DNA from: a virus
Lineage: Duplodnaviria; Heunggongvirae; Uroviricota; Caudoviricetes
Virus record (IMG/VR): IMGVR_UViG_3300028666_000024
Location: 128,001 to 169,231 of that record
Strand: one strand, 5' to 3'
Length of the DNA stretch: 41,231 bases
Shown piece after piece: positions 2,743-30,396 of the stretch. The translations under genes were made by a program, and so were the position numbers. Under the pieces are notes generated by a model. The model ran no database searches. It was given only the letters and a program-made list of their open reading frames with translations, and was not told the origin of the DNA. The stretch's first letter is position 1. The number at the start of each line of letters is the position of its first letter.

Positions 2743-2998
2743 ATGAATATATCAACTGCTGATACTCCAAACAGATTAAGAGTCTGAATGGAAGTGTATA
2801 AGAAAAGGTATTGGATATTATAATAAATGGTATCCTGTCGATGGAAGTAATACTCTTCTCTATGAACAAAGAATGCATGTGAAAAATATTCCTAATCCTC
2901 CAAAAGGAAAGTATTCTTGTAATCATAATAGAGTTGATGGATATGCTGATTATAAAATTGGAAGGTTTTATATTTCTCCTTATGATTTGGTAATATAA
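2743..2998 (+). pseudogene. Probable frameshifted or start-less small gene
   Basis: 72 open codons at 2780-2995 end in TAATG overlapping the primase start; first in-frame ATG is at 2873; a 14-codon ATG ORF (2743-2787) overlaps in another frame. Confidence 0.4.
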
Positions 2999-3978
2999 TG
3001 TTTCTACTCACAGATGCTTTCCTCATTGATGAACAAATCCGGCAGATTCTTAGAACTCATATTAAAGGTGGTTTCAAAGAGACTTCTGAATATTTTAATT
3101 TTCGATGTCATATCTGTGGTGATGATCAATATAACAAGACAGTTCGTAAAGCATATATTTTAAAAGAGGGTGATCGCAGGACTTATTATTGTCATCATGC
3201 AACTTGTGGATATTCAAAGTCTGTAACAACTTGGATGAAAGAGTATTTTCAATATGCTTTCAATGATTATATAGCATCTCTTATCAGAAACGATTCATCA
3301 GAATATGATATTTCACCAATTGTTGAAGAAGAGGTTTATGATGAAAAGAAAGATACAAAATTCTTCATTCCAATTTTAAAAGGTTTTGGAAATAATTTTG
3401 AAATTGCAAAACAACTATGTTATGATAGAAAGATTCCTTTTGAAGTTTGGAAAAAGTGGGGAGTTGCGACAGGTGGAACTTTTAAAAATAGATTGATAAT
3501 TCCATATTTCAACGGATCAGAGATTTATAATTGGCAGGCACGTAATCTGAATGATTGGGAACCGAGATATATTTCCCGTAAGGGTGATCATAATAACATT
3601 TATAATTTTTATAATGTAGATAAAACAAAACCTGTTGTTATATTTGAGGGAGTGATTGATAGTTTGTTTGTTGAAAATTCTATTGCTATTTCTGGTGCAG
3701 GGAAGATTAAAACAAAATTACTTAGAGAAATTCCTTATAAATACTTTTTGATGGATAGTGATGCAGCAGGCCGGAAGAAATCCTTACAACTCTTAAATGA
3801 TGGAAAATATGTATTCTCTTGGAAAAACTTTGCTGAGGATTTTAAAATAGATTTGACAAAAGAAAAAATAGATATGAATGATGTTATTTTACTTTTAAAT
3901 CGTTCTGAAGGTTTTAAATTTTCTGAACTTGAAAAGTATTTTACAGATTCAATATTTAGAAAGATTGAGTTCTTATGA
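2998..3978 (+). CDS. 61: T4 gp61-like DNA primase
   Basis: N-terminal zinc ribbon (NFRCHICGD...YYCHHATC), RLIIP, WQAR, TOPRIM FEGVIDSLF and MDSDAAG. Confidence 0.92.
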   Translation: MFLLTDAFLIDEQIRQILRTHIKGGFKETSEYFNFRCHICGDDQYNKTVRKAYILKEGDRRTYYCHHATCGYSKSVTTWMKEYFQYAFNDYIASLIRNDSSEYDISPIVEEEVYDEKKDTKFFIPILKGFGNNFEIAKQLCYDRKIPFEVWKKWGVATGGTFKNRLIIPYFNGSEIYNWQARNLNDWEPRYISRKGDHNNIYNFYNVDKTKPVVIFEGVIDSLFVENSIAISGAGKIKTKLLREIPYKYFLMDSDAAGRKKSLQLLNDGKYVFSWKNFAEDFKIDLTKEKIDMNDVILLLNRSEGFKFSELEKYFTDSIFRKIEFL

Positions 3979-6334: not shown

Positions 6335-6511
6335 ATGAGTGACGATGTGAATGAAGGATTTGATAAAACTAACGGTAGAAGGATATCAAGTTATACTTAT
6401 CATGAAAAGACAAATTCAATATTTGCTCTATGTGTAGATGGTACACTTTGGAACTATAATATTGAAAATGAATTGTGGAATAAAGTCCCGGAAATTCCTA
6501 AAAATGAATAG
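6335..6511 (+). CDS. Small hypothetical protein
   Basis: AAGGA RBS then ATG 6335; the track start at 6278 is the -35 box. Confidence 0.6.
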   Translation: MSDDVNEGFDKTNGRRISSYTYHEKTNSIFALCVDGTLWNYNIENELWNKVPEIPKNE

Positions 6512-7367
6512 AAAAGTTTTAATAATTGATTGTGGAAATTTGATGTATCGAACTCTTCATGGTTGTATACATCAATGCCCCGAAGACCAAGAGAATTTCT
6601 ACTTGTGGAGACATGCCTTCATAACATCTCTGTTTGAAAATATTAGAAGATTCAAACCAGATCATGTTGTTGTCGCTCAAGATTCAAAGATAAATTGGAG
6701 ATATAACATTTATCCTGAATACAAAGCCAATCGTAAACTCAGGAGAGCGAAGTCAGATATAAACTTTGAAAACTTCTTTCCTATTTCAAATAAGTTTTTT
6801 AAAGATATTAAAAATATCTTTTCAAATATTGTTTTTTTAAAAGTTGATGATTGTGAAGCAGATGATATTATTGCAACTCTTTGTTATAAATCAACAGGTG
6901 AAGAGATTACAATTCTTTCTTCTGATACAGATTTACTTCAACTTCAGATAGGGTTTCCAAAAATCAAACAATATGATCCTATGAAGAATGAGTATATTCA
7001 AAGTATTAATCCAAAAAAAGATTTATTTATCAAGATTATTGCCGGAGATCGTGGAGATTTTATTTATGGTATCAAACCTCGTTGTGGAATTAAAACGGCA
7101 GAAAAAATAATTGAAAAAAATTTGCTTGAAGAAGAACTTAAAAATGAAGAAGTTAGAAAGATTTATGAACGTAATGTAAAACTTATAGATTTGAAAAATA
7201 TTCCAAAAGAAATTTCAGAAAATGTTTGGAATATCTATTCAAGTTATCAGAAGCCTCAATTAAATTTAACAACTAAGGTCTTGGATTTCTGGTATCAAAA
7301 TAAACTTGTTGATTTGATGGAGAGATGGGGAGAAGATTACAAACCATTTATAAAAGAATTAACATAA
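6504..7367 (+). CDS. rnh: T4-type RNase H / 5'-3' flap exonuclease
   Basis: LIIDCGNL, WRYNIYPEYKANR, EADDIIATL, SSDTDLLQL, GDRGD..GI...GIKTA. Confidence 0.92.
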   Translation: MNRKVLIIDCGNLMYRTLHGCIHQCPEDQENFYLWRHAFITSLFENIRRFKPDHVVVAQDSKINWRYNIYPEYKANRKLRRAKSDINFENFFPISNKFFKDIKNIFSNIVFLKVDDCEADDIIATLCYKSTGEEITILSSDTDLLQLQIGFPKIKQYDPMKNEYIQSINPKKDLFIKIIAGDRGDFIYGIKPRCGIKTAEKIIEKNLLEEELKNEEVRKIYERNVKLIDLKNIPKEISENVWNIYSSYQKPQLNLTTKVLDFWYQNKLVDLMERWGEDYKPFIKELT

Positions 7368-9254: not shown

Positions 9255-11114
9255 ATGATAAAATATCCTAATATTGCTTCAGAGTTTGTTAGTTTGGTTC
9301 ATTATTGCAGATGGAATGAAAGTAAGGGTAGAAGAGAAAATTGGGAAGAGGTTACAGAAAGAGTTATAAATTGGTTGAAAAGTAAAGAACATTTGTCAAA
9401 AGTTCCTACAAAGGTTTGGAAAAAAATTGAAGATGGTCTTTTAAATTTTTCTGTAATGCCTTCAATGAGATTAGTTGCAACAGCAGGACCAGCAGCAGAT
9501 TCTAATAATATTTGTCTTTATAATTGTAGTTATCTTCCTATTGATACCTTAGAAAGTTTCTCCGAATTAATGTATATCTTGATGCATGGAAGTGGAGTAG
9601 GTTATAGTGTAGAAAAAGAAAATGTCAATAAACTTCCTGAGATTAAACATTGCACAGGAATCATGAGAGATGAATATACCGTTGAGGATTCAAGAGAAGG
9701 TTGGATGAAAGCAATTCTCTTCGGATTACAAACATGGTATGCAGGAGAAGATGTTGAATATAATTTTGGTAAAGTCAGACCTAAAGGTGCTCCCCTCAAA
9801 ACTATGGGTGGAACTGCTTCTGGTCCTGAACCTCTTAAAAAACTTTTGGAAGATGTTAAAAAAATAATTTTAAATGCTGTTGGAAGAAAATTGAAAACTA
9901 TCGAATGTCATGATATTTGTTGCATGATAGCAAGTTGTGTTGTTATGGGTTCAAAAAGAAGATCTGCATGTATTTCATTTAGTGATTTTGATGATGATGA
10001 AATGAGAGATGCTAAACATATTCCTTTTCCTTCGTATAGATATATGTCAAATAATAGTGCAGTATATAAAGATAAACCACAATCAGCAAAGTTTATGAAG
10101 GAGTGGGCTGAACTTGCTATGAGTGGAACAGGTGAACGAGGAATTTATATTGAACAGGAAAGAAACGGGCATAAACTCAGAACAAATCCTTGTGGGGAAA
10201 TCCTTCTTCGTCCTAATGAATTTTGTAATCTTTCAGAAGCAGTTATTCGACCCGGAGATGATATTGATGATTTAGTTGAAAAGGTTAAGACTGCTACTTG
10301 GTTGGGTTGTATTCAAGCAACATTTACAAATTTTCCAAATCTTCGTCCTATATGGAAACAAAATTGTGAAGAAGAAAGACTTATTGGAGTTTCATTAACA
10401 GGGCAGATGGATAATTCAGAAATTCTTACTGAAGAAGTTTTGAAACAACTTCGAAAGACTGTTGAAAAGGTTGCCAAACATGCTTGTAAAATATTAGGAA
10501 TTAATTTTTCTGCTGCTCTTACGGCGGTTAAACCTAGTGGGACAGTTTCACAATTAGTTAATAGTTCTTCGGGTTGTCATGCAAGATATGCTCCTCATTA
10601 TATCAGGAGATATCGTATTAATACAAGTGACCCTATGTTTCATATGATGTGTGATCAAGGTATGGAATGGTTTCCTGAAGTAGGACAAACAAAGGATAAT
10701 TGTTCAACGGCGGTCTTTGAATTTCCTATCAGGGCAGTTGCAGATAATATGATTTATAGGTCACAGATGAATGCTATTGACCAGTTAAATTGGTATTTGA
10801 AACTACAGGATAATTGGTGTTCTCATAATACTTCTATCACAATTTATGTTCCTGATTCTGAATGGTTAAAGGTTGGTTCAGAAGTTTATGATAAGTGGGG
10901 AAGGATTAATGGTGTTGCATTTTTTCCGCTTGATGAACATAATTATCCTTTGGCACCTTATGAAGAAATTACTTCAGAAAGGTATTTAGAAATGTTAGAA
11001 AATTTTCCAAGATTAGATTTTACAAAGTTAGGGGAGTATGAAAAAATCTCCGGGGATACTACCAAAACATCAAGGGAATTTTCTTGTAGTGGTGATAGAT
11101 GTGAGTTAAAATAA
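9255..11114 (+). CDS. nrdJ: Class II (adenosylcobalamin-dependent) ribonucleotide reductase
   Basis: PSMR, NCSY, VRPKGAPLKTMGG.ASGPEPL, TNPCGEI, KPSGTVSQL, C-terminal CSGDRCE; no beta subunit gene alongside. Confidence 0.93.
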   Translation: MIKYPNIASEFVSLVHYCRWNESKGRRENWEEVTERVINWLKSKEHLSKVPTKVWKKIEDGLLNFSVMPSMRLVATAGPAADSNNICLYNCSYLPIDTLESFSELMYILMHGSGVGYSVEKENVNKLPEIKHCTGIMRDEYTVEDSREGWMKAILFGLQTWYAGEDVEYNFGKVRPKGAPLKTMGGTASGPEPLKKLLEDVKKIILNAVGRKLKTIECHDICCMIASCVVMGSKRRSACISFSDFDDDEMRDAKHIPFPSYRYMSNNSAVYKDKPQSAKFMKEWAELAMSGTGERGIYIEQERNGHKLRTNPCGEILLRPNEFCNLSEAVIRPGDDIDDLVEKVKTATWLGCIQATFTNFPNLRPIWKQNCEEERLIGVSLTGQMDNSEILTEEVLKQLRKTVEKVAKHACKILGINFSAALTAVKPSGTVSQLVNSSSGCHARYAPHYIRRYRINTSDPMFHMMCDQGMEWFPEVGQTKDNCSTAVFEFPIRAVADNMIYRSQMNAIDQLNWYLKLQDNWCSHNTSITIYVPDSEWLKVGSEVYDKWGRINGVAFFPLDEHNYPLAPYEEITSERYLEMLENFPRLDFTKLGEYEKISGDTTKTSREFSCSGDRCELK

Positions 11115-11162: not shown

Positions 11163-11242
11163 GGCTTCGTGGTGGAATTGGCAGACACACCTGACTCAAG
11201 ATCAGACGCGAAAGCATAAGAGTTCAAATCTCTTCGAAGCTA
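11163..11242 (+). tRNA. tRNA-Leu (anticodon CAA), no encoded CCA
   Basis: Acceptor GGCTTCG/CGAAGCT+A; D-arm GTGGAATTGGCAGACAC; anticodon loop CTCAAGA; variable arm GCGAAAGC; T-arm AAGAG-TTCAAAT-CTCTT. Confidence 0.9.
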
Positions 11243-11275
11243 CTAACATTTAAATCTTAATAGGAGTAACATCTA

Positions 11276-12746: not shown

Positions 12747-13706
12747 ATGAACATTCAAGATCTTAACAGTGCAGTGTGGTATAAGAATTATCAACCGAAG
12801 AATATGAATAATATTATGCTTCCTAAGTCTATGAAAGCATATTTTACAAAACTTATGAAGAGTGGAAAAGATTTACCTCCTCTTCTTTTTCATTCAGTTT
12901 CTCCGGGAACTGGTAAGAGCACATGTGCATGGTGTCTAATCAATGACCTTGATGTTGATTATATTTACATTAACGGATCTTTGGAAAATGGTATTGATAT
13001 GATCCGCGATAAGATTGTTGTTTTCTGCACGACAGCATCTTTTGAAGGTAAGAAGAAGATTGTTTTTCTTGATGAGTTTGACGGTATTACTATGCAAGCG
13101 CAGAAAGCATTACGTGGTCTTGTTGATGAATTTATAAATTATTGTGGATTCATAGTTACTTTAAATTATGTGTCCACTATCATTGAACCTATCACTTCAA
13201 GATTTACAATGAAAGATTTTAATTTTACTTCTGAAGAAATCAAAACAGAACTTGTTCCAAAATTTGCAAAATATATCAATGATATTTTGGATATTGAAAA
13301 GGTTGAGAGATCTTCAGAAATTATTGAAACTGTTGTAAAGAAATTTTATCCTGATGTTCGTAAGATGGTAAATATTTGTCAGGAATATTCTGAACAAAAC
13401 AACGTTATTGATTCTGGAATTTTAAAGTTTGAAGAGATTTCAAATGAACTTATAGAATTTATTTTAAAAAGAGATTTTTTAGGAGCAAGAAGATTTGTAA
13501 TCAATAATAATATCAGTCACCGAGTTATATTCTCTCATCTTTACAAACATCTATTACCAAGACTTTTAAATACTCCTTTACAAAAAAGGTTTCCAGAAAT
13601 TTTGATAATTCTTGCAAAGTATGACCGAGAGAGTTATTATGCAAATGACAAAGAATTACAAGTTGCTGCATGTTTATTAGAGATTATTCAAAGAATTAGT
13701 ATATAA
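12747..13706 (+). CDS. 44: T4 gp44-like clamp loader AAA+ subunit
   Basis: W..NYQP, SPGTGKST Walker A, FLDEFD Walker B, AQKALRG, IIEPITSRF, YPDVRK. Confidence 0.93.
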   Translation: MNIQDLNSAVWYKNYQPKNMNNIMLPKSMKAYFTKLMKSGKDLPPLLFHSVSPGTGKSTCAWCLINDLDVDYIYINGSLENGIDMIRDKIVVFCTTASFEGKKKIVFLDEFDGITMQAQKALRGLVDEFINYCGFIVTLNYVSTIIEPITSRFTMKDFNFTSEEIKTELVPKFAKYINDILDIEKVERSSEIIETVVKKFYPDVRKMVNICQEYSEQNNVIDSGILKFEEISNELIEFILKRDFLGARRFVINNNISHRVIFSHLYKHLLPRLLNTPLQKRFPEILIILAKYDRESYYANDKELQVAACLLEIIQRISI

Positions 13707-14739: not shown

Positions 14740-15421
14740 ATTAATTGTTCCAAGAGTTCCCGGCGACGATGTTCTTTTCGATAGTATCGTATATGCTAAC
14801 GTTAAAAACATTTCAACTCAGACAGAGATAATCAACATCACAGACGATTATCCTAACGAAACAATTCATTCAAAATATTTCAAAGCTTTGATAAATTTGA
14901 AAGAAAATGATTTGAAAGATGATGATGTTCTTATATTCTGTCATAATGATTGTGGAATTATTGATCCTCTTTTCAAAGAAAAAGTTGATAGGTTTTTTGA
15001 AACTACAGATGTTGCTCTTCTTGGTTTTGTTGGAAGTAGCAAAATGAAAGAGGATTTGTGTTGGTGGAATAGTGAACCTCAATATCTTCGAGGTCATTTG
15101 ATGCAGGGTAATAAGGATGATAATAATGCAACACATTTGATAAAGGGAGCAATAGGATTTTATAACGATTTAATAATGATTGATGGTTTTTGTTTTGTAA
15201 CGCTTGGAAAGTATTTTAAAAATTTTCCAATCAATTTTGATAATAGTTATAAAGGAAATCATTTTTATGATATGGACCTTTGCCGTCAGTTTATGTTTCA
15301 AGATTTAAAAATTGGAGTTGCAGATATTCTTATGTATCACAAGTCTCCCGGTAGTTCTCCAAGTGATGAAAATTGGAAATCCGATAGAGCAAACTTCTTA
15401 TTGAAAGCAGATTACATTTAA
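14732..15421 (+). CDS. GT2-like glycosyltransferase (Glyco_tranf_2_5-like)
   Basis: LIFCHND, GFVG, IDGFCF, FD......HFYDMDLC, H.S.G motifs. Confidence 0.75.
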   Translation: MYKLIVPRVPGDDVLFDSIVYANVKNISTQTEIINITDDYPNETIHSKYFKALINLKENDLKDDDVLIFCHNDCGIIDPLFKEKVDRFFETTDVALLGFVGSSKMKEDLCWWNSEPQYLRGHLMQGNKDDNNATHLIKGAIGFYNDLIMIDGFCFVTLGKYFKNFPINFDNSYKGNHFYDMDLCRQFMFQDLKIGVADILMYHKSPGSSPSDENWKSDRANFLLKADYI

Positions 15422-15865
15422 ATGATGTTTCTTACTTGTTTGAGTATAATTATCTATCAGTGTTGGACAGGTGTAGTTGAAGGACTGAAGAATCGTTGGT
15501 CAACTCTTCCGGTTCTTTGGTGGTCTAAAGATGGTTCATATCATGAGTGGAGATTGATGCAGGGAGTTTTTATTATTTTTGCTGTTATCTTCGGGATGTT
15601 TGCTGGTTTTACTTGGTTACATGTTGCTGCCCTTGTTTGTTCGTGGATAGGTGGTAACGCAATCTATAACAGATTCCTTGTATGGGTTGCACAAGCTAAA
15701 CATTCACTACTCGATATAAATCGTAATGTAGATGGAACACCAGCCTCTTTTTGTTTTGGAAAGTTGATTTTAAAACAATATCCAATTTTTACAACGGGTT
15801 GGACAGAACTTGTGTTTACCTTTCCAATCTTTACAATTTTTGCAATAATCTTAGCAATAGTTTAA
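15422..15865 (+). CDS. Hypothetical membrane protein
   Basis: Several hydrophobic segments. Confidence 0.7.
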   Translation: MMFLTCLSIIIYQCWTGVVEGLKNRWSTLPVLWWSKDGSYHEWRLMQGVFIIFAVIFGMFAGFTWLHVAALVCSWIGGNAIYNRFLVWVAQAKHSLLDINRNVDGTPASFCFGKLILKQYPIFTTGWTELVFTFPIFTIFAIILAIV

Positions 15866-15876
15866 AAGGAGTTAAA

Positions 15877-21133: not shown

Positions 21134-21386
21134 TCTTTTAAAAGAACTTCTAAATATTTACAATCTTCTTTCTGAAGGTAAAGATAAAAAAGATTTAGAA
21201 TACATTTTAAATCTTATCAAGATCAGTATAACTACTAATAAGGTTTCTTTAAAATTTATTTTACTTTATTTAAAAAACAAACTCAAGAGTGTAAGTGTTG
21301 CTTCAAATGTGGATGGTAAGTCGTTGATTCTTTGGAGAAAAATTCTAAACATCTTTCAGGAGAATGTAAAAAGTGAAAATAATTAA
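21120..21386 (+). CDS. Hypothetical protein
   Basis: ORF overlapping both neighbours in the operon. Confidence 0.6.
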   Translation: MPNPNLLKELLNIYNLLSEGKDKKDLEYILNLIKISITTNKVSLKFILLYLKNKLKSVSVASNVDGKSLILWRKILNIFQENVKSENN

Positions 21387-21993
21387 ACCAAGTTTTGAAA
21401 TTCTTTCTAAGATTGATGGAGAAGAAATTTTAAAGAATTTAGAATTGGTAGGAAGAGTTTGTTATAAATCAGAAGAAAAGATTACAGAAGATTCAGCAAG
21501 AAAATTTGTAAAAGGAATTATAAAGTCAGGACATGAAACTATTCTCGAACATGAAAAGGTTACAGTCAGGATTATTTGTGACCGTGGTGTATCGCATGAA
21601 TTGGTAAGACATAGAATTATAAGTCCAAGTCAGGAGTCTACTCGTTTTGTAAAATATAATGATGTTACTTTTATTGAACCATGTTTTTGGAATGAAGATC
21701 CTGAAATGTTTACTGCTTGGAAGACTGCTTGTGAATCTGCTGAGAAAGTATATTCTTTTATGCTTGATAGTGGAGCAAAACCACAAGAAGCCCGTTCAGT
21801 TCTTCCTAATTCATTAAAGACTGAACTTGTTATTACTGCTAATATGAGAGAGTGGAGACATATATTTAAACTTCGTGCTATCGGAACAACTGGTAAACCT
21901 CACCCTCAAATGTTAGAGATTATGGTTCCTATGCTACAAGAATTTAAAACAAGAATTCCTGTTATCTTTGACGATTTAACCTTTAACAATTAG
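21373..21993 (+). CDS. thyX: Flavin-dependent thymidylate synthase
   Basis: GRVCY, GHETILEH, SHELVRHR..S.SQESTR, QEARSVLP, NMREWRH. Confidence 0.95.
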   Translation: MKIIKPSFEILSKIDGEEILKNLELVGRVCYKSEEKITEDSARKFVKGIIKSGHETILEHEKVTVRIICDRGVSHELVRHRIISPSQESTRFVKYNDVTFIEPCFWNEDPEMFTAWKTACESAEKVYSFMLDSGAKPQEARSVLPNSLKTELVITANMREWRHIFKLRAIGTTGKPHPQMLEIMVPMLQEFKTRIPVIFDDLTFNN

Positions 21994-22001
21994 GAGTTAT
22001 T

Positions 22002-22160
22002 ATGGGTTCAGATGATGCAAATTGGTTGTTTAGTGATAGTCCAAGTCTTGAGGATACAACAGCAGGTATGGTGTTTCATGGTGATTTCAACTTAGAAAAG
22101 TTTGTAAGGGAAGTTGGAGTTGAAAAGGTTCAGGAAACTATTAACAAGTTAAAGGTATAG
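22002..22160 (+). CDS. Small hypothetical protein (52 aa)
   Basis: AGGAG RBS; TAG directly abuts ATG 22161. Confidence 0.6.
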   Translation: MGSDDANWLFSDSPSLEDTTAGMVFHGDFNLEKFVREVGVEKVQETINKLKV

Positions 22161-22604
22161 ATGGACAAGAAAGAAGTTCTCAATTTTGTTTATGAGGTTA
22201 TCAAGGATGAAAACCTCCAGATTTATCCAATAGTGAAATATAAATACAAACACATCTCCTATCCTTGTGAGATAATATTATTCAAAGGTAAAGATAAGAA
22301 GAATCTTTTAATCTGTAATCTTATTTTGAACAGAAATGTTTTTAACAACAAAACAAACAGAAATCTACTAAAGGCATATATTCTTCATGAATTTGGACAT
22401 TGTTTCTTTGAATCAAAAAGTAAATATAAGAATGAACTGTATGCACAAACGTGGGCCATCTATAAAGCAAGGAAGATGGGAATTAAATTCATCGAAAGAC
22501 ATTTGATAACTATTATGAAAGAATGGTTGGAAATGAATTGGCAAGATTTTGAATTTCGTAGATACATAACGGCAGCTAAAGAATATTTCAAAGAAAAAAA
22601 GTAA
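22161..22604 (+). CDS. HExxH zincin-like metallopeptidase-fold protein
   Basis: ILHEFGH followed by NELYA (third-ligand Glu spacing as in ImmA/IrrE-like proteins). Confidence 0.65.
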   Translation: MDKKEVLNFVYEVIKDENLQIYPIVKYKYKHISYPCEIILFKGKDKKNLLICNLILNRNVFNNKTNRNLLKAYILHEFGHCFFESKSKYKNELYAQTWAIYKARKMGIKFIERHLITIMKEWLEMNWQDFEFRRYITAAKEYFKEKK

Positions 22605-22612
22605 TATAGTTC

Positions 22613-22641
22613 TTGACTTTTATTTACCCATAATATATTTT
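22613..22641 (+). promoter_or_regulatory. sigma70-like promoter, class B-like, for the radical SAM operon
   Basis: TTGACT-17-TATTTT; spacer resembles the 30460 (-) promoter. Confidence 0.5.
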
Positions 22642-22642
22642 A

Positions 22643-23701
22643 ATGACAACCAAATTAAACAACTTTAGAAAGGGTTTTAAAGTGAATCTTTTTGAAAATA
22701 AAAAAATAAAGTCTCTGAGTTCACCTGAAGTTAATTATATATTTAACAAAGAAAACGGACTGATGGGAGTTTGGGGTAAAGAAATAGAAGAAGATCCTAC
22801 TCATTCTCCCTATGGTCCTTTCATTGCAGATATTGAACTCTCTACTATCTGTGCAAATGGTTGTCGTTTCTGTTACAAAGACAATACTTCTAAGGGTGAG
22901 AATATGAGTTTCGAAACCTTTACAAAACTTTTCAAAAAGATTCCAAAGACCCTTACACAAATTGCTTTTGGAATTGGTGATATTAATAGTTGTCCAGACC
23001 TATTTCCCATTATGAATTATTGCAGAAACAATGATTATAATTATGTTGTTCCTAATATCACTATCAATAGTTGCACAGAATATCAGGCTTCTTGTCTTGC
23101 TTCTATTTGTGGTGCTGTTGCTGTGTCTCTTTATGATTATGATACCTGTTATAATTCAGTCAAACGTCTTACCGATGCAGGTTTGACTCAGGTTAATATT
23201 CATGCCGTTGTTAGTGAAGAAACTTATGACAGATGTATGAAGGTTGTTGAAGATGTAAAGACTGACCCACGCTTGAATAAACTCAATGCTATTGTTTTCT
23301 TGATGTTGAAGAACAAAGGCCGGGGAGAAACCTTTCATAAGATTTCTTTTGAAAAGTATAAAATTCTTGTGAATACTGCCCTTGAAAAAAAGATTAATAT
23401 TGGATTTGATAGTTGTTCAGCATTTAGTTTTCTTTCGGTTGTTGATAATCAAAATAAATATAAACAGTTTGTTGAAGAATGTGAAAGTGCAAGGTTTAGT
23501 CTTTATATCAATGTTAAAGGTGAATATCATCATTGCTCATTCGCGGAAAAGGGAGATGGTATCAGTATCCTTGATTGTGAAGATTTTGTAAAGGATATTT
23601 GGAATCATGAAAAAGTTGTAAATTTTCGAAATACTTCTATAGAGAATTGTAAAAAATGTGTTTCTTGTCAACTATTTGATTTGAAACTGGAGAAAGAATA
23701 A
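22643..23701 (+). CDS. Radical SAM enzyme with C-terminal SPASM/twitch-like Cys cluster
   Basis: CANGCRFC (CxxxCxxC); C-terminal CES.RFSLYINVKGEYHHC...CKKCVSC; true start may be GTG 22682. Confidence 0.9.
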   Translation: MTTKLNNFRKGFKVNLFENKKIKSLSSPEVNYIFNKENGLMGVWGKEIEEDPTHSPYGPFIADIELSTICANGCRFCYKDNTSKGENMSFETFTKLFKKIPKTLTQIAFGIGDINSCPDLFPIMNYCRNNDYNYVVPNITINSCTEYQASCLASICGAVAVSLYDYDTCYNSVKRLTDAGLTQVNIHAVVSEETYDRCMKVVEDVKTDPRLNKLNAIVFLMLKNKGRGETFHKISFEKYKILVNTALEKKINIGFDSCSAFSFLSVVDNQNKYKQFVEECESARFSLYINVKGEYHHCSFAEKGDGISILDCEDFVKDIWNHEKVVNFRNTSIENCKKCVSCQLFDLKLEKE

Positions 23702-23702
23702 T

Positions 23703-24005
23703 ATGAAAATTAGAATGGGGTTTGTCAGCAATTCAAGTAGTTCTTCTTTCGTATTTTATGTTAAGAAAGAAGATTTTCAAAAGGTACTTGATAAACTTCC
23801 TGAAGATATTAAGAAAGATTTTACAGAAGCAGACCCCAAAGACCCCGAAGACTATTATGCTAACTACCGGGAAGAGAATCATTTTGGAGTTAATATCATA
23901 AGATGTTATTTTTCTGTAATTGAAGGTTGTGAAACATATGAAATTATTCAAAATATTTTTAAAGATATTGATAATATTTCTTCAAATCTTGGGAGGAATG
24001 AATGA
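23703..24005 (+). CDS. FVSNSSS-motif protein 1
   Basis: N-terminus MKIRMGFVSNSSSSSFVF. Confidence 0.9.
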   Translation: MKIRMGFVSNSSSSSFVFYVKKEDFQKVLDKLPEDIKKDFTEADPKDPEDYYANYREENHFGVNIIRCYFSVIEGCETYEIIQNIFKDIDNISSNLGRNE

Positions 24006-24280
24006 AAATTCGAACAGGTTTTGTTTCAAATAGTTCATCATCAAGTTTTATAATTCTTATGAAGAAAGAAGATTATAAAGAGTTTTACAAATCTTTAGAA
24101 CCAAAACTAAAAAAAATTATTAAAAGTAATGATCTTGGTTGTTGTGTAAATGATTTGAAACATTTTAATATAGATTTAAAAGAAATTAATATGAGTGGAA
24201 TGGATGGAGATGATTGGATGCAAGATATTCAAAAAACAGCATCTAAGTTTGATATTATAAAATATTATATTGATAACTAA
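24002..24280 (+). CDS. FVSNSSS-motif protein 2
   Basis: N-terminus MKIRTGFVSNSSSSSFII. Confidence 0.9.
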   Translation: MKIRTGFVSNSSSSSFIILMKKEDYKEFYKSLEPKLKKIIKSNDLGCCVNDLKHFNIDLKEINMSGMDGDDWMQDIQKTASKFDIIKYYIDN

Positions 24281-24316
24281 TGAAGTTCAATTAACAAAGT
24301 TCAATAGGAGTATGAT

Positions 24317-24685
24317 ATGAAAATCAGAACAGGTTTTGTCAGCAATTCATCATCGTCTTCTTTTATTGTTGATACTGAGGCAGACAAGAATGAATTGGAA
24401 CTAATGAAAGTTAAATCATTTTCGGTTGATGAAATTATAAAGTATTATGAAAATATTTTAAAATCTCTTTCTAATGTCGATACTGCCGAAGAGATTATGC
24501 CTTACTTTATGACTCTAACTTATTCCTATAGACCAACTATATCTTCTATCAAAAAAGAACTTATGGAAGAGATTGAAGTTATGAAAAATTATAAAGGTAA
24601 ATACATAACAGAAGCAGTCGATAGGGATTGGGCGTATGAAAATATATTAACATTTAAACTCTCAACTTTCGAAACAGACTTATAA
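24317..24685 (+). CDS. FVSNSSS-motif protein 3
   Basis: N-terminus MKIRTGFVSNSSSSSFIV. Confidence 0.9.
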   Translation: MKIRTGFVSNSSSSSFIVDTEADKNELELMKVKSFSVDEIIKYYENILKSLSNVDTAEEIMPYFMTLTYSYRPTISSIKKELMEEIEVMKNYKGKYITEAVDRDWAYENILTFKLSTFETDL

Positions 24686-24686
24686 T

Positions 24687-25043
24687 ATGAAAATCAGAAC
24701 TGGTTTTGTTTCAAATAGTTCCAGCGCAAGTTATTTGATTATAGTTAAGAAAGAAGACTTTCAAAAGATTTATAATGGTTTGAAAGATTTTGAACAAAGT
24801 ATGATTAATGAAGTTTCAAAACCTTTTAAAAAATTTGGAATGAATCTTGTAGAAATTTATTTTAAACGTGATGAAGATTATACAACTCTTGATGATTGGG
24901 AAGAATCTAATAAGGATGATTTTACTCAAAAACAAAATTATTTATTTGAAGAAAAATATTATGGAGTAGGAAGATATTTTGAAGATAAAGTTATAAAAAA
25001 TTTTGAAAGTGTTGAAAATATTACACATTGTGATTTTGAATAA
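24687..25043 (+). CDS. FVSNSSS-motif protein 4
   Basis: N-terminus MKIRTGFVSNSSSASYLI. Confidence 0.9.
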   Translation: MKIRTGFVSNSSSASYLIIVKKEDFQKIYNGLKDFEQSMINEVSKPFKKFGMNLVEIYFKRDEDYTTLDDWEESNKDDFTQKQNYLFEEKYYGVGRYFEDKVIKNFESVENITHCDFE

Positions 25044-25067
25044 ATAACTAAATTCAAGGAGATTAAT

Positions 25068-25403
25068 ATGAAAATTCGTATGGGTTTTGTATCTAACAGC
25101 AGCAGTTCAAGTTTCTGTATTTATGGAGTAGAAATAACTGAAAAAGATATTTGTAAAATTTTAGATGTTCAAGACTTTAATTCTATCAATCATTATGTAG
25201 AAGATATTACCGAGAAGACAGATCTTGAGATGCATGGTAACGGAAATTCTGAAACTTATTATCTCGGTCGTAGTTTCAGTACAATTGGAGATGATGAAAC
25301 AGGCAAGGAATTTAAAAAGTCAATTGAAAATACTTTGAAAAAGTTTCTTGGAAATGATATTAAATGTTGTGATATTGAAGAAACCGGATATGATGTTTAT
25401 TAA
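25068..25403 (+). CDS. FVSNSSS-motif protein 5
   Basis: N-terminus MKIRMGFVSNSSSSSFCIYG. Confidence 0.9.
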   Translation: MKIRMGFVSNSSSSSFCIYGVEITEKDICKILDVQDFNSINHYVEDITEKTDLEMHGNGNSETYYLGRSFSTIGDDETGKEFKKSIENTLKKFLGNDIKCCDIEETGYDVY

Positions 25404-25427
25404 CATTAACATTAACAAAGGAGTAGT

Positions 25428-25772
25428 ATGAAAATTCGTATGGGTTTTGTATCTAACAGCAGTTCAAGTAGTTTTTGTATCTATGGGATGGAAATGGACA
25501 AAGAAGACCTTCTAAAGATTATTGGTAAGACTGAAGAAGAGTTTGGTGGAATGTATGATTCATTAGAAGAAGCGGCAGAGAAGACAGATCTTGAGATGCA
25601 TGGTAACGAAAATTCTGAAACTTATTATCTCGGTCGTAGTTATTCTCGTATTGGTGGTGAAGAAACAGGCAATCAATTCAAGGCAGATGTTGTAAAGAAA
25701 CTTAGTGATGCTCTTGACAGGAATGTTTCTGCATCTTGTAGTTATATTTCAGAAGCTTGGTATAATGGATAA
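25428..25772 (+). CDS. FVSNSSS-motif protein 6
   Basis: N-terminus MKIRMGFVSNSSSSSFCIYG; full-length paralogue of protein 5. Confidence 0.9.
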   Translation: MKIRMGFVSNSSSSSFCIYGMEMDKEDLLKIIGKTEEEFGGMYDSLEEAAEKTDLEMHGNENSETYYLGRSYSRIGGEETGNQFKADVVKKLSDALDRNVSASCSYISEAWYNG

Positions 25773-25797
25773 GCATTTTTATGAAGTATAATTGTAT

Positions 25798-25824
25798 GAG
25801 AGGGAGTTTTTAAATTCCCTCTTT
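25798..25824 (+). terminator. Stem-loop terminator closing the radical SAM operon
   Basis: GAGAGGGAG...TTCCCTCTT. Confidence 0.7.
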
Positions 25825-25849
25825 CAAATTTTTATAAAGAGGATTTAAA

Positions 25850-26167
25850 ATGCCAATTGATAATATTGAACTTTTAAATAAATTAGTAAAGAAAATCGAA
25901 GATACTTTCAAAGTCGATGAATGGACATATGATTTAATTCCTCCAGATTACAAAGAGAAAGTTTTTAAGAAAGATGGTAGCATAGAAATATTAGATCATT
26001 GTATAGGTGTTAGAAATATTAATAGTAGAACTCAAAAATTGTGGTTTACTTCTACAAAAGAATCTAAAATTCTTTACAAGTTTATTATAAAAAAAATTGA
26101 TGATAAAAGATTTGAAATACTTACAAAAGATATTGAAGATTCTATTGAAAATATTTTAAAATCATAA
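25850..26167 (+). CDS. Hypothetical protein
   Basis: GAGGA RBS, TAATG coupling. Confidence 0.7.
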   Translation: MPIDNIELLNKLVKKIEDTFKVDEWTYDLIPPDYKEKVFKKDGSIEILDHCIGVRNINSRTQKLWFTSTKESKILYKFIIKKIDDKRFEILTKDIEDSIENILKS

Positions 26168-26454
26168 TGTCCAAACAATCCGAACTTTATAAAAGAAATT
26201 GGATATATGTTCAAAATCCAAAGGTGTATGGTTTTCACTGTGATGTCTGTGGTGAAAGTAATATTGAATGGTCTGAATTTGAAGGACATATTTTTTGTAA
26301 AGATTGTAAGATAGATACTAAAGGAACAGGAAGTATTTTTGATGGGCCAATTGATGTGAATGCTGCAACAATGTTAGGAATATCTTTCGACCGTCTCGAT
26401 ATTCAAACTAACAAACTTCAAAAATTTAATTTAAAAACAAAACAATATGAATAA
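26167..26454 (+). CDS. Zinc-ribbon protein
   Basis: CDVCG...FCKDC. Confidence 0.7.
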   Translation: MSKQSELYKRNWIYVQNPKVYGFHCDVCGESNIEWSEFEGHIFCKDCKIDTKGTGSIFDGPIDVNAATMLGISFDRLDIQTNKLQKFNLKTKQYE

Positions 26455-27133: not shown

Positions 27134-27865
27134 ATGGCAAATCCAATTAATAAAAAAGATTTAATAATTACAGATTTTGAAACAACAGGAACAGATTTTA
27201 GAACACATGAGATTATTGAGATAGGTGCAATCAGAGTTGATTATCAATTGAATATTATTGAAGAATATTGTCAAAAAACAAAGATAAATCATCCTGAGTT
27301 GTTGACCGAGAGTGCAAAACGTTGTAATGGTTATCAAGAACATCTTTGGAAGAATTCAAAAGATTTAGAAGAATCTATCAAAGAATATCTCGTCCTTGCT
27401 AAAAGTGCTATCTTCGTTGCTCATAATACTACATTTGATTGGTTATTTCTAAATCAAGCAATGTATAATTTTAAAATTAAGGATACCTTTGATAGATATA
27501 AATATGATATTCCAACTATCTTTCATACGCTTTATCCAGATGCTGAGTATATTGGGGTTGATAGCATAAGTAAAATGTTAGGTCTGCCGGAAGAAGTTAA
27601 ACCACATGCCGCTATCAATGGTGTACGACAGTCTTTGAAAATTTTGAGAAGATTGAAAAATTTACCAATCGATGATTTAGAAGAACTTGAAAAGAAGAGA
27701 AGTCCTTATTCATATGGTCAAATGTTTGGATCTAAATATTCTAATACTGTTTGTGTAATATGTAATAATAAAATCAAAGAAGGTGAAATGATGTGTAAGC
27801 AATATGATAACAGAGATAAAAATAATATCAACTATGTTCATGTTGATTGTATTGGGAGGATTTAA
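27134..27865 (+). CDS. DEDDh (DnaQ-like) 3'-5' exonuclease with C-terminal zinc-binding module
   Basis: DFETTG, EIIEIGAI, FVAHN..FD, PHAAING; C-terminal CVIC...HVDC. Confidence 0.85.
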   Translation: MANPINKKDLIITDFETTGTDFRTHEIIEIGAIRVDYQLNIIEEYCQKTKINHPELLTESAKRCNGYQEHLWKNSKDLEESIKEYLVLAKSAIFVAHNTTFDWLFLNQAMYNFKIKDTFDRYKYDIPTIFHTLYPDAEYIGVDSISKMLGLPEEVKPHAAINGVRQSLKILRRLKNLPIDDLEELEKKRSPYSYGQMFGSKYSNTVCVICNNKIKEGEMMCKQYDNRDKNNINYVHVDCIGRI

Positions 27866-28061: not shown

Positions 28062-29000
28062 TCAATCTTCGGAAGCAAAATTAAACTTCCGGAGCGGTTT
28101 GACCTCGATCATGCTCGGAAGAATTTTTTCAATCTTTTCAAACTCCTTTTTGATTTCTTCCCGAAAATCATCATTTTTCCGAAGAACTTCAACATCACAT
28201 CCCTTCATGACAAGTTTTGCCTTTTCCACCAACTCAGTCAGGTCGTTATCATCCGTGATGTTCAGGTTTTTGAAGTTGTTGATGAATTCCTCAAAATTTT
28301 CAAAGGAGTTCTTTTTGAATCGCCGTTTATTTCCATCCGGACTGTCACCGAGGACTTCTGCAAGATGAGATATCAATTCTGCAAACTTCACCCGTAATGC
28401 CTGTTGAATCTCGATGGCGGCATTCTTCAACTTATCCGAGAACTCTGCACGTTCCCTCTTGAAGATTTCCGGAGAGATTGACTTCAGACGACCGGGGAGG
28501 GTTTCTTCGATGTAGTTTGTCTCGACCCCGAACTCAGCAGCGATGCTTTCCTTTGATAAATAGTCGGCAGGATTAAATACTCCACCGAGATCATTTTTGG
28601 CATCCCTGACAGCTTGTTCGTAAACGTCGATGAACTTTGAGATTTCCATCAAGCGCCGACTCCGGTATTCCTGAATCATGCTGTCAACAACTTCCAGATT
28701 GGCAAGGGGAATCAGGTAAACACCACGACCGAACGGAGAGGGAAGACTGAGTTTCAGGATATCCGACCTGATTGCATTGTCGGAACTCATGATTTCATCA
28801 AACTCCGGGCAACTGAAAAGTTTCTTCGATACCCCGATGTTCTCGGTCTTCGGTTGCTCACCATGACCTTCCTTGAGTTGCATCGAATCGCTTTGCACCT
28901 TGCGACGAATACCCGGACGGCTGATCTCAATACGGAACGCGATACACTTGTCAAAAAGATTTGGTTGGGTTTCGAGGAACGACTTTTTAGGCTTCTGCAT
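28062..29000 (-). CDS. DUF3150-like helical protein, GC-richer than flanks
   Basis: SKKL...SLP...G.YLIP...F...YE......LG..FN..DY pattern; GGAGG RBS and own promoter. Confidence 0.6.
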   Translation of the reverse strand: MQKPKKSFLETQPNLFDKCIAFRIEISRPGIRRKVQSDSMQLKEGHGEQPKTENIGVSKKLFSCPEFDEIMSSDNAIRSDILKLSLPSPFGRGVYLIPLANLEVVDSMIQEYRSRRLMEISKFIDVYEQAVRDAKNDLGGVFNPADYLSKESIAAEFGVETNYIEETLPGRLKSISPEIFKRERAEFSDKLKNAAIEIQQALRVKFAELISHLAEVLGDSPDGNKRRFKKNSFENFEEFINNFKNLNITDDNDLTELVEKAKLVMKGCDVEVLRKNDDFREEIKKEFEKIEKILPSMIEVKPLRKFNFASED

Positions 29001-29059
29001 AACAACCTCCGGTTTAGTTTTGGTGTTGATTGATGTCGTTTCAAACTTCCTACAACTAA

Positions 29060-29088
29060 AATATACAACATCCCGGACAACAATGCAA
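29060..29088 (-). promoter_or_regulatory. sigma70-like promoter, class B
   Basis: TTGCAT-17-TATATT with upstream TTTAAAATAGATTTAAAAAGAC, also seen before 33392. Confidence 0.8.
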
Positions 29089-29115
29089 GTCTTTTTAAAT
29101 CTATTTTAAAATATT

Positions 29116-30396
29116 TTACTCCCATTCATTGAAAAAGAATCTGCTTTTCTTCGGTAATAGTTTTGAATTCAAGGACTTAGAATCTTTTATACACTCACAT
29201 TTCCTAATTAGTTTCAAAAACCTTAAAGATACTTCTGTATTATACGCTGATCCGTTGTTCGAAGCAAACCATCTGACGATAACTCTTTTGGGTTTTTCAA
29301 AATTAATAATCTTTCCTCTTCTACCCACATTAATGGATTGAGAGAATCTAGTATCTTCCAAACAATTCTCTACAATATCACCAACATCAAACATTTCATA
29401 CTCTTCTTCCCGCGAAATCATATCATCTTCACAATACCAACCATAACCAGCAGAACAAAGTCCGTTGCAGTTGATTCCTCCAACGTATTCATCCCATTCA
29501 ACTCCGATTAATTCAGAGTCAAATCCTATAATGGTTCCAGTCAAATCTTTCCAAATCTTTCCAAAATTTGTTTTAATATCCTGAGTTGCAGTGACCTTAT
29601 CCCCGATCTGAAGTTCCCGAAAAGTGAATTTACTTACAAATCGTATTTGATTAAAATTACAAGTTATAAAAGCATCTCCTGATGATCTTTTATCTGGAGA
29701 TTTGTTTTTTATATAAAATTGAATAGTTCCTTGTCCTACACTTGCAACCTCAAGAATTTTTCCACTTAGATATTTAAAGCAATCATCTACACAATAAATA
29801 ATCTTTACATACTCTCCCGGTTTGAGTGCATCTTTATCTTCAAAAGATTTTTCCGAATATTGTGGTGAAGGAGTTGTGGATTTAGTTAGATCATCACAAG
29901 AAATAAATTCACACCGGGACTTATCGATATACCAAAGGGAATTTTTTGGACCATCACCAGTAGTTAAAGTATTCCAATCAACATAATAACATGAAGTACT
30001 TTCATCAACAATAGTTCCAACCATACCCCCTATGATTTTATCTTCCATAAAACCTTTAACTTCATTTTTAATACAAATAACATAACTTCCAATCTTTGAT
30101 ATCTTTGGTATTGGTGGTTGAAGAGATGTATAATTTAATTTTATTTTATTTTCTTCTTCAGGCGAATCTATTTTTTTGATGAATTTTTCTAATTCATTTT
30201 TAGGCCATATTATAATCCACCCATTCATTGGGTTTCCAGCAGAACTTATAATGGGAATATCCCAATCAACAATAAAATCTCCATCACTATCGATTTTTAT
30301 AATTTTTCCTTTCATACCAACTTTTAAATTCCAAGGAGTATCAAAACTTGAATAGTTTTTTATGACTTCAATCCTATCTTTTACTTTAAAATTCAT
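29116..30396 (-). CDS. Multi SH3/CAP-Gly-like domain protein with KKSRFFF tail
   Basis: About five modules of type (GD/G).V...G.(I/V)...V.W, including GVEWDEYVGGINCNGLC; ends KKSRFFFNEWE. Confidence 0.65.
   Translation of the reverse strand: MNFKVKDRIEVIKNYSSFDTPWNLKVGMKGKIIKIDSDGDFIVDWDIPIISSAGNPMNGWIIIWPKNELEKFIKKIDSPEEENKIKLNYTSLQPPIPKISKIGSYVICIKNEVKGFMEDKIIGGMVGTIVDESTSCYYVDWNTLTTGDGPKNSLWYIDKSRCEFISCDDLTKSTTPSPQYSEKSFEDKDALKPGEYVKIIYCVDDCFKYLSGKILEVASVGQGTIQFYIKNKSPDKRSSGDAFITCNFNQIRFVSKFTFRELQIGDKVTATQDIKTNFGKIWKDLTGTIIGFDSELIGVEWDEYVGGINCNGLCSAGYGWYCEDDMISREEEYEMFDVGDIVENCLEDTRFSQSINVGRRGKIINFEKPKRVIVRWFASNNGSAYNTEVSLRFLKLIRKCECIKDSKSLNSKLLPKKSRFFFNEWE

Follow-up and report, generated by a model that had tools for sequence, protein, structure and literature searches.

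What is the relationship between a radical S-adenosylmethionine (SAM) enzyme of a large, T4-like phage and six small proteins that are encoded directly behind it and that all begin with the same 16 residues? The question is raised by a block of seven genes in a 41,231-nucleotide (nt) window, that is, the whole stretch of DNA analyzed here, which forms positions 128,001-169,231 of the 169-kb viral genome IMGVR_UViG_3300028666_000024; coordinates given below are those of the window. Radical SAM maturases are known for their action on short natural-product peptides and on a few dedicated protein substrates, such as sulfatases and the amine dehydrogenase subunit. Our results make it probable that the enzyme encoded here modifies the shared N-terminal sequence, hereafter the tag, on a whole panel of phage proteins, and enzyme and tag together most likely represent a new protein-modification system.

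The block (22613-25824) comprises the radical SAM gene, six tightly packed tag genes on the same (+) strand, and a terminator-like hairpin. The open reading frame (ORF) listing places all seven genes where the original prediction, made from the DNA alone, had put them, with each tag ORF 92-122 amino acids (aa) long. Intergenic spacing across the block ranges from -4 to +36 nt, and a GGAG-type ribosome-binding site precedes most genes. The individual features, with the isoelectric point (pI) of each tag protein, are as follows.

22613..22641, + strand: promoter-like site TTGACT-17-TATTTT, just 5' of the radical SAM gene, with 9/12 positions matched
22643..23701, + strand: radical SAM enzyme, 352 aa, with CANGCRFC (CX3CX2C at C70/C74/C77) and a twitch/SPASM-like C-terminal domain
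23703..24005, + strand: tag protein 1, 100 aa, pI 4.8, MKIRMGFVSNSSSSSF followed by its own body
24002..24280, + strand: tag protein 2, 92 aa, pI 7.7, MKIRTGFVSNSSSSSF, with an ATGA start/stop overlap with tag gene 1
24317..24685, + strand: tag protein 3, 122 aa, pI 4.7, MKIRTGFVSNSSSSSF, whose body resembles no other in the window
24687..25043, + strand: tag protein 4, 118 aa, pI 4.9, MKIRTGFVSNSSSASY, starting 2 nt past the protein 3 stop
25068..25403, + strand: tag protein 5, 111 aa, pI 4.6, MKIRMGFVSNSSSSSF, member of a widespread ~110-aa 'FCIYG...YIGRSW..DDETG..EAWYDG' family
25428..25772, + strand: tag protein 6, 114 aa, pI 4.5, paralog of protein 5 with 44% identity
25798-25823, with a T-rich tail to 25832, + strand: terminator-like hairpin with an 11-bp stem and a 4-nt loop, 26 nt past the last tag gene

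All six window proteins begin MKIR[MT]GFVSNSSS[SA]S[FY]. Scanned in all six frames, the 169-kb genome has the tag at six places, all inside the block. The codon usage reported in the original prediction proved exact: in ORFs 1-6 the serine after FV is encoded by AGC, TCA, AGC, TCA, TCT, and TCT, and the serine after N by TCA, AGT, TCA, AGT, AGC, and AGC. Compared pairwise, the 16 tag codons show 118 synonymous versus 19 non-synonymous differences at a mean nucleotide identity of 67%, which points to selection on the tag as a peptide rather than as DNA. This constraint extends well beyond the window. Across 353 distinct viral tag proteins the consensus reads MK[I/V/T]RxGFVSNSS[S/T][S/T/A]SF, with M1, K2, R4, G6, F7, V8, S9, N10, S11, S12, S15, and F16 conserved at 95-100% (F7 99%, V8 95%, S9 99%); information exceeds 4 bits at 11 of the first 16 positions and falls below 1 bit at positions 19-26. 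These 353 proteins are 74-269 aa long (median 132), and the pI lies below 5.5 in 87% of their bodies. A profile built from the six window proteins retrieved 11,543 cluster representatives among 1.84 billion. Within PHROGs, phrog_7397 matches all six tag proteins, mostly via residues 1-24 alone (E 6e-6 to 2e-3), and both this family and phrog_7293, to which the enzyme belongs, are listed there as being of unknown function.

Behind the tag, the proteins diverge. The three body types described in the original prediction (1/2/4, 3, and 5/6) held only in part: the ORF5 and ORF6 bodies are clear homologs (E 2e-24) and that of ORF3 stands alone, with a word-index homology search using tag protein 3 returning no match besides itself, while ORF1 and ORF4 are joined by a marginal match (E 4e-4) and ORF2 drops out of that group, its body having a 26-residue local match to ORF5 alone. 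With the first 18 residues removed, the 353 viral tag proteins form 152 families, of which 115 have a single member, and the seven largest families matched one another at hhalign probabilities of no more than 1.6%. The number of families and the lack of similarity among the largest indicate that the tag is a portable module on unrelated bodies and not the core of one fold.

These data bear directly on a different account, in which all tag proteins are a single, much diverged fold. The motif would then supply a core strand and, next to it, a Ser-rich loop for binding phosphate or a ligand, and the enzyme would be a partner in metabolism and not a maturase. Such a pairing of strand and Ser-rich loop does resemble the N-termini of nucleotide-binding proteins, and in an AlphaFold2 (AF2) model of the ORF5 family (predicted local distance difference test score, pLDDT, 83.5) residues S13-F16 enter the first strand of a ferredoxin-like body. 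The original prediction had itself named a core beta-strand of one shared fold as an outcome that would speak against it. In the model, however, residues 1-12, the most conserved part, are predicted to be disordered, with a pLDDT of about 50 and no secondary structure; the ORF5-family body is of a generic kind, as a Foldseek search of it against the PDB gave nothing at E <=0.001 and only generic ferredoxin-like folds; and the largest body families, as noted, share no profile-profile similarity once the tag is removed. We therefore consider a common fold very improbable.

Some side observations concern the bodies and arrays themselves (labels beginning with L denote individual loci, and positions after such a label are those of the locus). 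Body family 0 (~163 aa, 25 members; e.g. L016 8012, 8519, 9029) has CxxCG right after the tag and more Cys/His pairs, which suggest a zinc-ribbon body. Truncated tag ORFs of 20-42 aa, ended by a stop, occur within intact arrays (L032/L033 12655; L036/L039 7757; L063 876; L080 10001) and are a sign of rapid turnover of array members. Finally, three database proteins (P0049, P0110, P0126) contain two complete tags each, one N-terminal and one internal that is still preceded by Met; judged by their sequences, these look like neighboring array genes that have been fused, or between which a stop was missed.

To ask what accompanies the tag, we searched IMG/VR with tag peptide patterns alone, which gave more than 592 pattern matches, and analyzed 40 confirmed loci. 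A full-length homolog of the enzyme (39-50% identity) was found within 10 kb in 32 of these 40 viral loci, mostly directly upstream and on the same strand, in arrays of up to 13 tag genes and on contigs of 26-54% GC and 17-548 kb. The same association emerged when the search began from the enzyme: among 80 viral loci retrieved with patterns from eight enzyme sequences, 71 carried 1-13 tag genes, and all of the tag genes (291/291) lay on the enzyme strand. Five of the nine enzyme loci without a nearby tag were checked record-wide, and tag genes were present elsewhere in 4/5, among them the two records with at least 90% completeness; for five tag loci without a nearby enzyme, the same check found the enzyme elsewhere in 1/5. 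Tag genes are thus rarely seen without this enzyme clade nearby, the opposite of what, according to the original prediction, would have counted against it. No third gene shares the association. As a synteny control, no other window ORF between 12 and 36 kb had a homolog in more than 2/40 loci, and no families besides the enzyme and the tag-protein bodies were recurrent across loci.

Cultured phages agree with this picture. The enzyme is found in 172 records and the tag protein of phage KP27 in 175, with respective counts by host genus of 110 and 115 for Klebsiella, 20 and 20 for Enterobacter, 14 and 14 for Cronobacter, 11 and 11 for Citrobacter, and 9 and 9 for Escherichia. The enzyme and tag genes of KP27 are ~19 kb apart, yet their genus counts are nearly identical; in Vibrio phage D479, five tag genes lie 2-10 kb from the enzyme. 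The system is thus present in the cultured phages KP27, Miro, Matisse, and Lw1 and in RB43-like phages, whose annotations mostly list both genes as hypothetical.

The architecture of the arrays has a precedent in the T4 internal proteins (IPI-III, Alt), which are encoded by tandem genes in a plastic region and carry a common short N-terminal capsid-targeting peptide on unrelated bodies. This likeness, together with the predicted flexibility of residues 1-12, could be taken to mean that the tag is a trafficking or stability signal, whether for capsid packaging, degradation, or secretion, and that the radical SAM gene is linked to it for other reasons. We regard this as quite improbable. The T4 peptide is a different one and has no radical SAM partner, whereas here tag and enzyme are linked whichever of the two is searched first (32/40 and 71/80 loci), and the pair is also found in bacterial NACHT cassettes, described below, where there is no capsid. 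The tag contains no prohead-protease cleavage motif (L/I-x-E) and no hydrophobic core of the signal-peptide type, and a predicted complex of tag and enzyme, also described below, passes its controls.

In bacteria the tag is much rarer. Tag patterns gave only 92 matches in a set of one genome each of 185,579 species, some of them phage-like arrays on contigs of metagenome-assembled genomes (MAGs). Ten loci from Acidobacteriota and Verrucomicrobiota share a cassette that encodes a 959-aa SMEK_N-NACHT protein, a 128-aa protein, a 137-aa tag protein, and, directly downstream of the latter, a homolog sharing only 27-31% identity with the phage enzyme. Retention of the pair at this level of enzyme identity is strong support for a functional couple. 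This bacterial sister enzyme passes the Pfam Radical_SAM model (51.8 bits), and the NTPase part of the SMEK_N-NACHT protein matches the PADLOC models for Avs2 (E 1.8e-23); PADLOC contains no model for the window enzyme or its tag protein. In outline, the cassette can be likened to the KpAvs2-Avap1-Avap2 operon of Klebsiella pneumoniae, in which a STAND (nucleotide-binding leucine-rich repeat [NLR]-like) NTPase is likewise combined with small protein(s) and a radical SAM protein; there, activity against some phages requires the radical SAM protein Avap1, to which no role is assigned, and the STAND protein is bound by Avap2, a small accessory protein (Bechon et al. 2024, PMC11564622). The two differ in the N-terminal effector, which is an Mrr nuclease in KpAvs2 and SMEK_N in the bacterial cassette, and Avap2 belongs to Pfam DUF6375 (PF19902), which gave no match in the six window tag proteins (E <=1) and none in the bacterial 128-aa and 137-aa proteins (E <=10) or in five host genomes. 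A search for DUF6375 in 401 genomes from the class to which one of the MAGs belongs gave no match either, but was uninformative since its controls were also without a match. As DUF6375 matches none of the proteins here, the likeness to the KpAvs2 pair is, on this evidence, one of outline.

What kind of enzyme is associated with the tag? It matches phrog_7293 over residues 13-341 (E 2.6e-83), and its relatives, which make up more than 3,245 clusters, are named only generically in public sources. A CX3-13CX2C motif followed by Y-K/R is present in 28/28 aligned homologs and takes the form C70-X3-C74-X2-C77 in the window enzyme. The Cys-rich, SPASM-like tail noted in the original prediction is supported by the Pfam SPASM model (23.8 bits, above the 21.5 cut-off), although only four C-terminal Cys (C258, C280, C298, and C342) are invariant among the 28 homologs. 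Of the seven-Cys SPASM pattern (CX9-15GX4C ... CX2CX5CX3C ... C), the window enzyme keeps the first part as C280-X12-G-X4-C298, and the full CX2CX5CX3C block is not conserved, reading CX2CX2C in the window and being reduced to a single Cys in some homologs. With just four invariant C-terminal Cys, the tail fits a twitch-like domain, with a single auxiliary cluster, better than a full SPASM domain.

An AF2 model of the enzyme (pLDDT 89.6) consists of a four-strand N-terminal beta domain (residues 15-44), a barrel, and a C-terminal domain. Foldseek matched it to 181 PDB chains at E <=0.001, with those at the top of the list all being radical SAM enzymes. The leading matches were SkfB, TigE, SuiB, and the anaerobic sulfatase-maturating enzyme (anSME), at E 6.5e-11 to 7e-9, and the best of these was the twitch enzyme SkfB; including CteB and EpeE, the range was 6.5e-11 to 5e-7, at identities of 11-17%. 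The lipid synthase GDGT-MAS was third among the matches, and so it is mainly, and not solely, with peptide- and protein-modifying radical SAM enzymes that these fold matches group the enzyme.

The enzyme gene also appears to be a site of insertion. In two loci it is found in two pieces ~0.75-1.2 kb apart (L069 7374-7676 + 8431-9132; L037 7255-7452 + 8655-9491), and in Vibrio phage D479 (L002 5076-5804, - strand) a homing endonuclease gene abuts its 3' end. Together these observations suggest that mobile insertions, either homing endonucleases or introns, target the gene.

We then predicted the complex of the enzyme with residues 1-40 of an ORF5-family tag protein in the presence of SAM and two 4Fe-4S clusters. 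The interaction prediction score from aligned errors (ipSAE) was 0.84, 0.84, and 0.83, whereas the best of three controls reached 0.01; at least 66% of contacts were common to the runs, and the pLDDT of the partner was at least 54. The same mark is reached by 58/80 solved complexes and 2/110 mismatched pairs, counts that are only a rough guide here because our own alignments and small molecules were supplied. In this model, the tag is paired through residues 2-4 with a strand in the N-terminal beta domain (enzyme residues 39-44), F7 is set against N138, G157, A158, and Q183, and residues ~6-19 run across the barrel mouth, with the SAM/[4Fe-4S] site on one side and the auxiliary-cluster domain on the other. 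Altogether, tag residues 1-19 contact the invariant D63, Y78, Q106-G110, N138-T140, C156-A160, N185, H187, G254-C258, C280, and C298-F300. The original prediction had proposed co-folding as a means of learning whether the Ser run of the tag reaches the active site, and the model supports binding of the tag in the catalytic cleft, a result that concerns binding and does not address catalysis or the target atom.

This placement also bears on whether the tag proteins might be adaptors or specificity subunits, with the tag docking the bodies on the enzyme and the bodies bringing in or regulating the true substrate, whether a protein of the host, nucleic acid, or some small molecule. The many unrelated, folded bodies are what would be expected of target-binding modules, the tag is more conserved than the enzyme, and in the KpAvs2 operon an accessory protein binds the STAND protein while no function is assigned to the radical SAM partner (PMC11564622). 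Against this, tag residues 1-19 fill the catalytic cleft in the predicted complex and would be expected to block any other substrate, the nearest folds act directly on peptides, and phage loci contain no third conserved component. We consider an adaptor role unlikely, and modification of the tag itself the better reading of the same evidence.

Comparison with characterized systems sets bounds on what this modification could be. The twitch/SPASM peptide maturases SkfB (6efn), SuiB (5v1s), CteB (5why), and TigE (8vpo) are the best fold matches (E 6.5e-11 to 7e-8, TM about 0.5-0.6), at a sequence identity of only 12-17%. The phage enzyme shares with them the partial TIM barrel and C-terminal auxiliary Fe-S domain, a gene that adjoins those of its putative substrates, and a substrate peptide predicted to lie between barrel and auxiliary domain. 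It differs in having a four-strand N-terminal beta domain and no PqqD-like recognition element, and its putative substrates are proteins of 74-269 aa, up to 13 per enzyme, rather than short precursors. Membership in a gene cluster of the RiPP type (peptides made by ribosomes and modified after translation) is not supported, on the basis of this substrate size, the folded state of the one body modeled, and the lack of a recurrent protease or exporter: no protease or transporter/exporter family recurs in 41 loci.

Also among the top fold matches (E 5e-9) is anSME/AtsB (4k39). This radical SAM enzyme, which likewise carries auxiliary clusters, acts on complete, folded proteins, altering a Ser or Cys within a conserved motif close to the N-terminus, and the tag here is rich in serine. 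It has a full SPASM domain with two auxiliary clusters, unlike the phage enzyme with its four invariant C-terminal Cys. Membership of the module among anSME systems is not supported, as the tag consensus lacks the (C/S)-x-(P/A)-x-R motif and Pfam finds no sulfatase domain in the bodies. By analogy, the serine run and anSME-like fold would nonetheless fit oxidation to formylglycine.

A second candidate chemistry is suggested by the triceptides, which contain three-residue cyclophanes. FxsB and related radical SAM/SPASM enzymes are reported to form cyclophanes on precursor peptides (PMC10114670), and peptides with an FxSxx motif occur with a radical SAM-SPASM partner in NTPase conflict systems, with the Fxs motif at the precursor C-terminus (PMC7159879). 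The invariant F7-V8-S9 of the tag fits the aromatic-x-Ser pattern of triceptide systems, a match of pattern only that makes a crosslink a hypothesis. Unlike the motif of Fxs precursors, the tag is N-terminal, and the enzyme gave no match at E <=1 to the NCBIfam XyeB, FxsB, or GrrB models. Other chemistries can be set aside more readily. Thioether formation is excluded by the absence of Cys from the tag, and epimerization appears less likely given that the enzyme has no invariant Cys beyond the cluster ligands. A glycyl-radical system (a C-terminal R-V-x-G-[FWY] in a large barrel enzyme, with a small PflA-type activase) was rejected because R4-x-G6-F7 of the tag is one residue short, N-terminal, and found on small proteins, and because the enzyme has a C-terminal auxiliary-cluster domain and best fold matches that are not activases.

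The original prediction had put forward a single enzyme acting on the shared tag of varied small proteins, and this is supported by co-occurrence, the absence of any other conserved neighbor, the unrelated bodies, the predicted complex, and the maturase-like fold. The module would then have two components, with the N-terminal tags of the proteins encoded downstream serving as substrates of the radical SAM enzyme. From SAM, reductive cleavage would yield a 5'-deoxyadenosyl radical; this radical would take a hydrogen from one of the tag residues, and the resulting modification would most plausibly be a two-electron oxidation or a crosslink, with a Phe7-x-Ser9 cyclophane, as in triceptides, or conversion of Ser to formylglycine, as by anSME, as candidate products. 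One enzyme could in this way mature a modular set of small proteins, mostly acidic and otherwise unrelated, which would be expressed from an early/middle-type region and presumably serve host takeover or counter-defense. That catalysis takes place on the tag, as well as the residue hit, the product, and the role of the matured proteins, is what we infer from these lines of evidence.

Several observations weigh against this model. The tag is more strongly conserved than the enzyme, as would be unusual if it served for recognition alone. S13-F16 begin the first beta-strand of the ORF5-family body (strand 13-24), so the tag is partly structural and would have to be free, either before folding or by being peeled off, to enter the enzyme. 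The predicted complex was limited to residues 1-40, used alignments that we supplied, and was evaluated from residue contacts. By sequence the enzyme is divergent: it scores 26.8 bits (E 7e-6) against Pfam Radical_SAM (PF04055), below the 29.5 cut-off, has no meaningful match among PDB chains, and has a single NCBIfam hit, to the twitch model N_Twi_rSAM, at 17.5 bits versus a cut-off of 170. Four of the five tag records searched in full have no enzyme anywhere, these being fragments that are 21-79% complete. Finally, two Planctomycetota MAGs have, on chromosomal contigs, a lone tag gene of the FCIYG type and no phrog_7293 enzyme in the genome:

L059, 10001-10366 (2.6 Mb contig): FCIYG-type tag gene
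L072, 10001-10381 (530 kb contig): FCIYG-type tag gene

In L059, a different, canonical radical SAM-SPASM gene (14833-15876) lies 4.5 kb downstream of the tag gene and adjoins a DNA methylase.

As the original prediction had supposed, no characterized system with this motif seems to have been described. The string GFVSNSSS is absent from searchable papers and preprints, and concept searches of this literature also returned nothing on the system. The radical SAM gene is not discussed in the KP15/KP27 genome paper, and papers on pelagimyophages and Campylobacter phages mention radical SAM cassettes and not the tag.

One enzyme thus appears to serve a portable 16-residue tag that is fused to at least 152 small-protein sequence families. 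If true, this would bring a new protein modification to phage biology and a first role for thousands of hypothetical phage genes, provide a compact enzyme-plus-tag pair of possible use in protein engineering, and offer a lead on the unexplained radical SAM partners in bacterial NLR-like defense operons. A bolder and, in our estimation, doubtful extension is that the enzyme turns the serine-rich tag into a defined structure, such as a crosslinked or electrophilic cap, that is itself the functional part and that phages mount on a varied arsenal of binding bodies to attack or evade host immunity, with the SMEK_N-NACHT cassettes employing the same enzyme and tag in bacterial immunity. Phage and host would in that case share a single post-translational modification and contend over it in their arms race.

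The control signals of the block are of uneven quality. Tag gene 1 starts 2 nt past the enzyme stop, with GGAG upstream, and encodes an N-terminus that matches phrog_7397. The terminator named in the original prediction is real, with both a hairpin (25798-25823) and a T run, and it is the single such site in 22000-26300 (0.7 expected). The putative promoter fared less well: in this AT-rich region 28 promoter-like sites were found versus 24.8 expected from shuffled sequence, so that the site at 22613 is not above chance and constitutes weak evidence.

Immediately 5' of the radical SAM gene, a 147-aa ORF (22161-22604, + strand) contains HEFGH, a zinc-peptidase-like HExxH motif. It was considered as a leader peptidase and rejected, as it has a homolog in 0/40 related loci and no Pfam, relevant PHROG, or NCBIfam match; it probably lies outside the system.

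The wider window holds a T4-like DNA-metabolism set: primase (2998-3978), exonuclease (6438-7367), ribonucleotide reductase (9255-11114), clamp loader (12747-13706), ThyX-type thymidylate synthase (21373-21993), and an RNase T-like exonuclease (27134-27865). The proximity of the ribonucleotide reductase, primase, clamp loader, exonuclease, and ThyX genes places the module in a T4-like replication region of early/middle genes. A single tRNA-Leu (anticodon CAA) is located at 11163-11243 (+ strand), just past the ribonucleotide reductase gene. Farther downstream, a minus-strand block (28062-30396) contains two ORFs of 312 and 426 aa, neither with a Pfam or PHROG match; with a GC content of 0.44 at 28-29 kb and a reversed GC skew, this block may be an inserted element.

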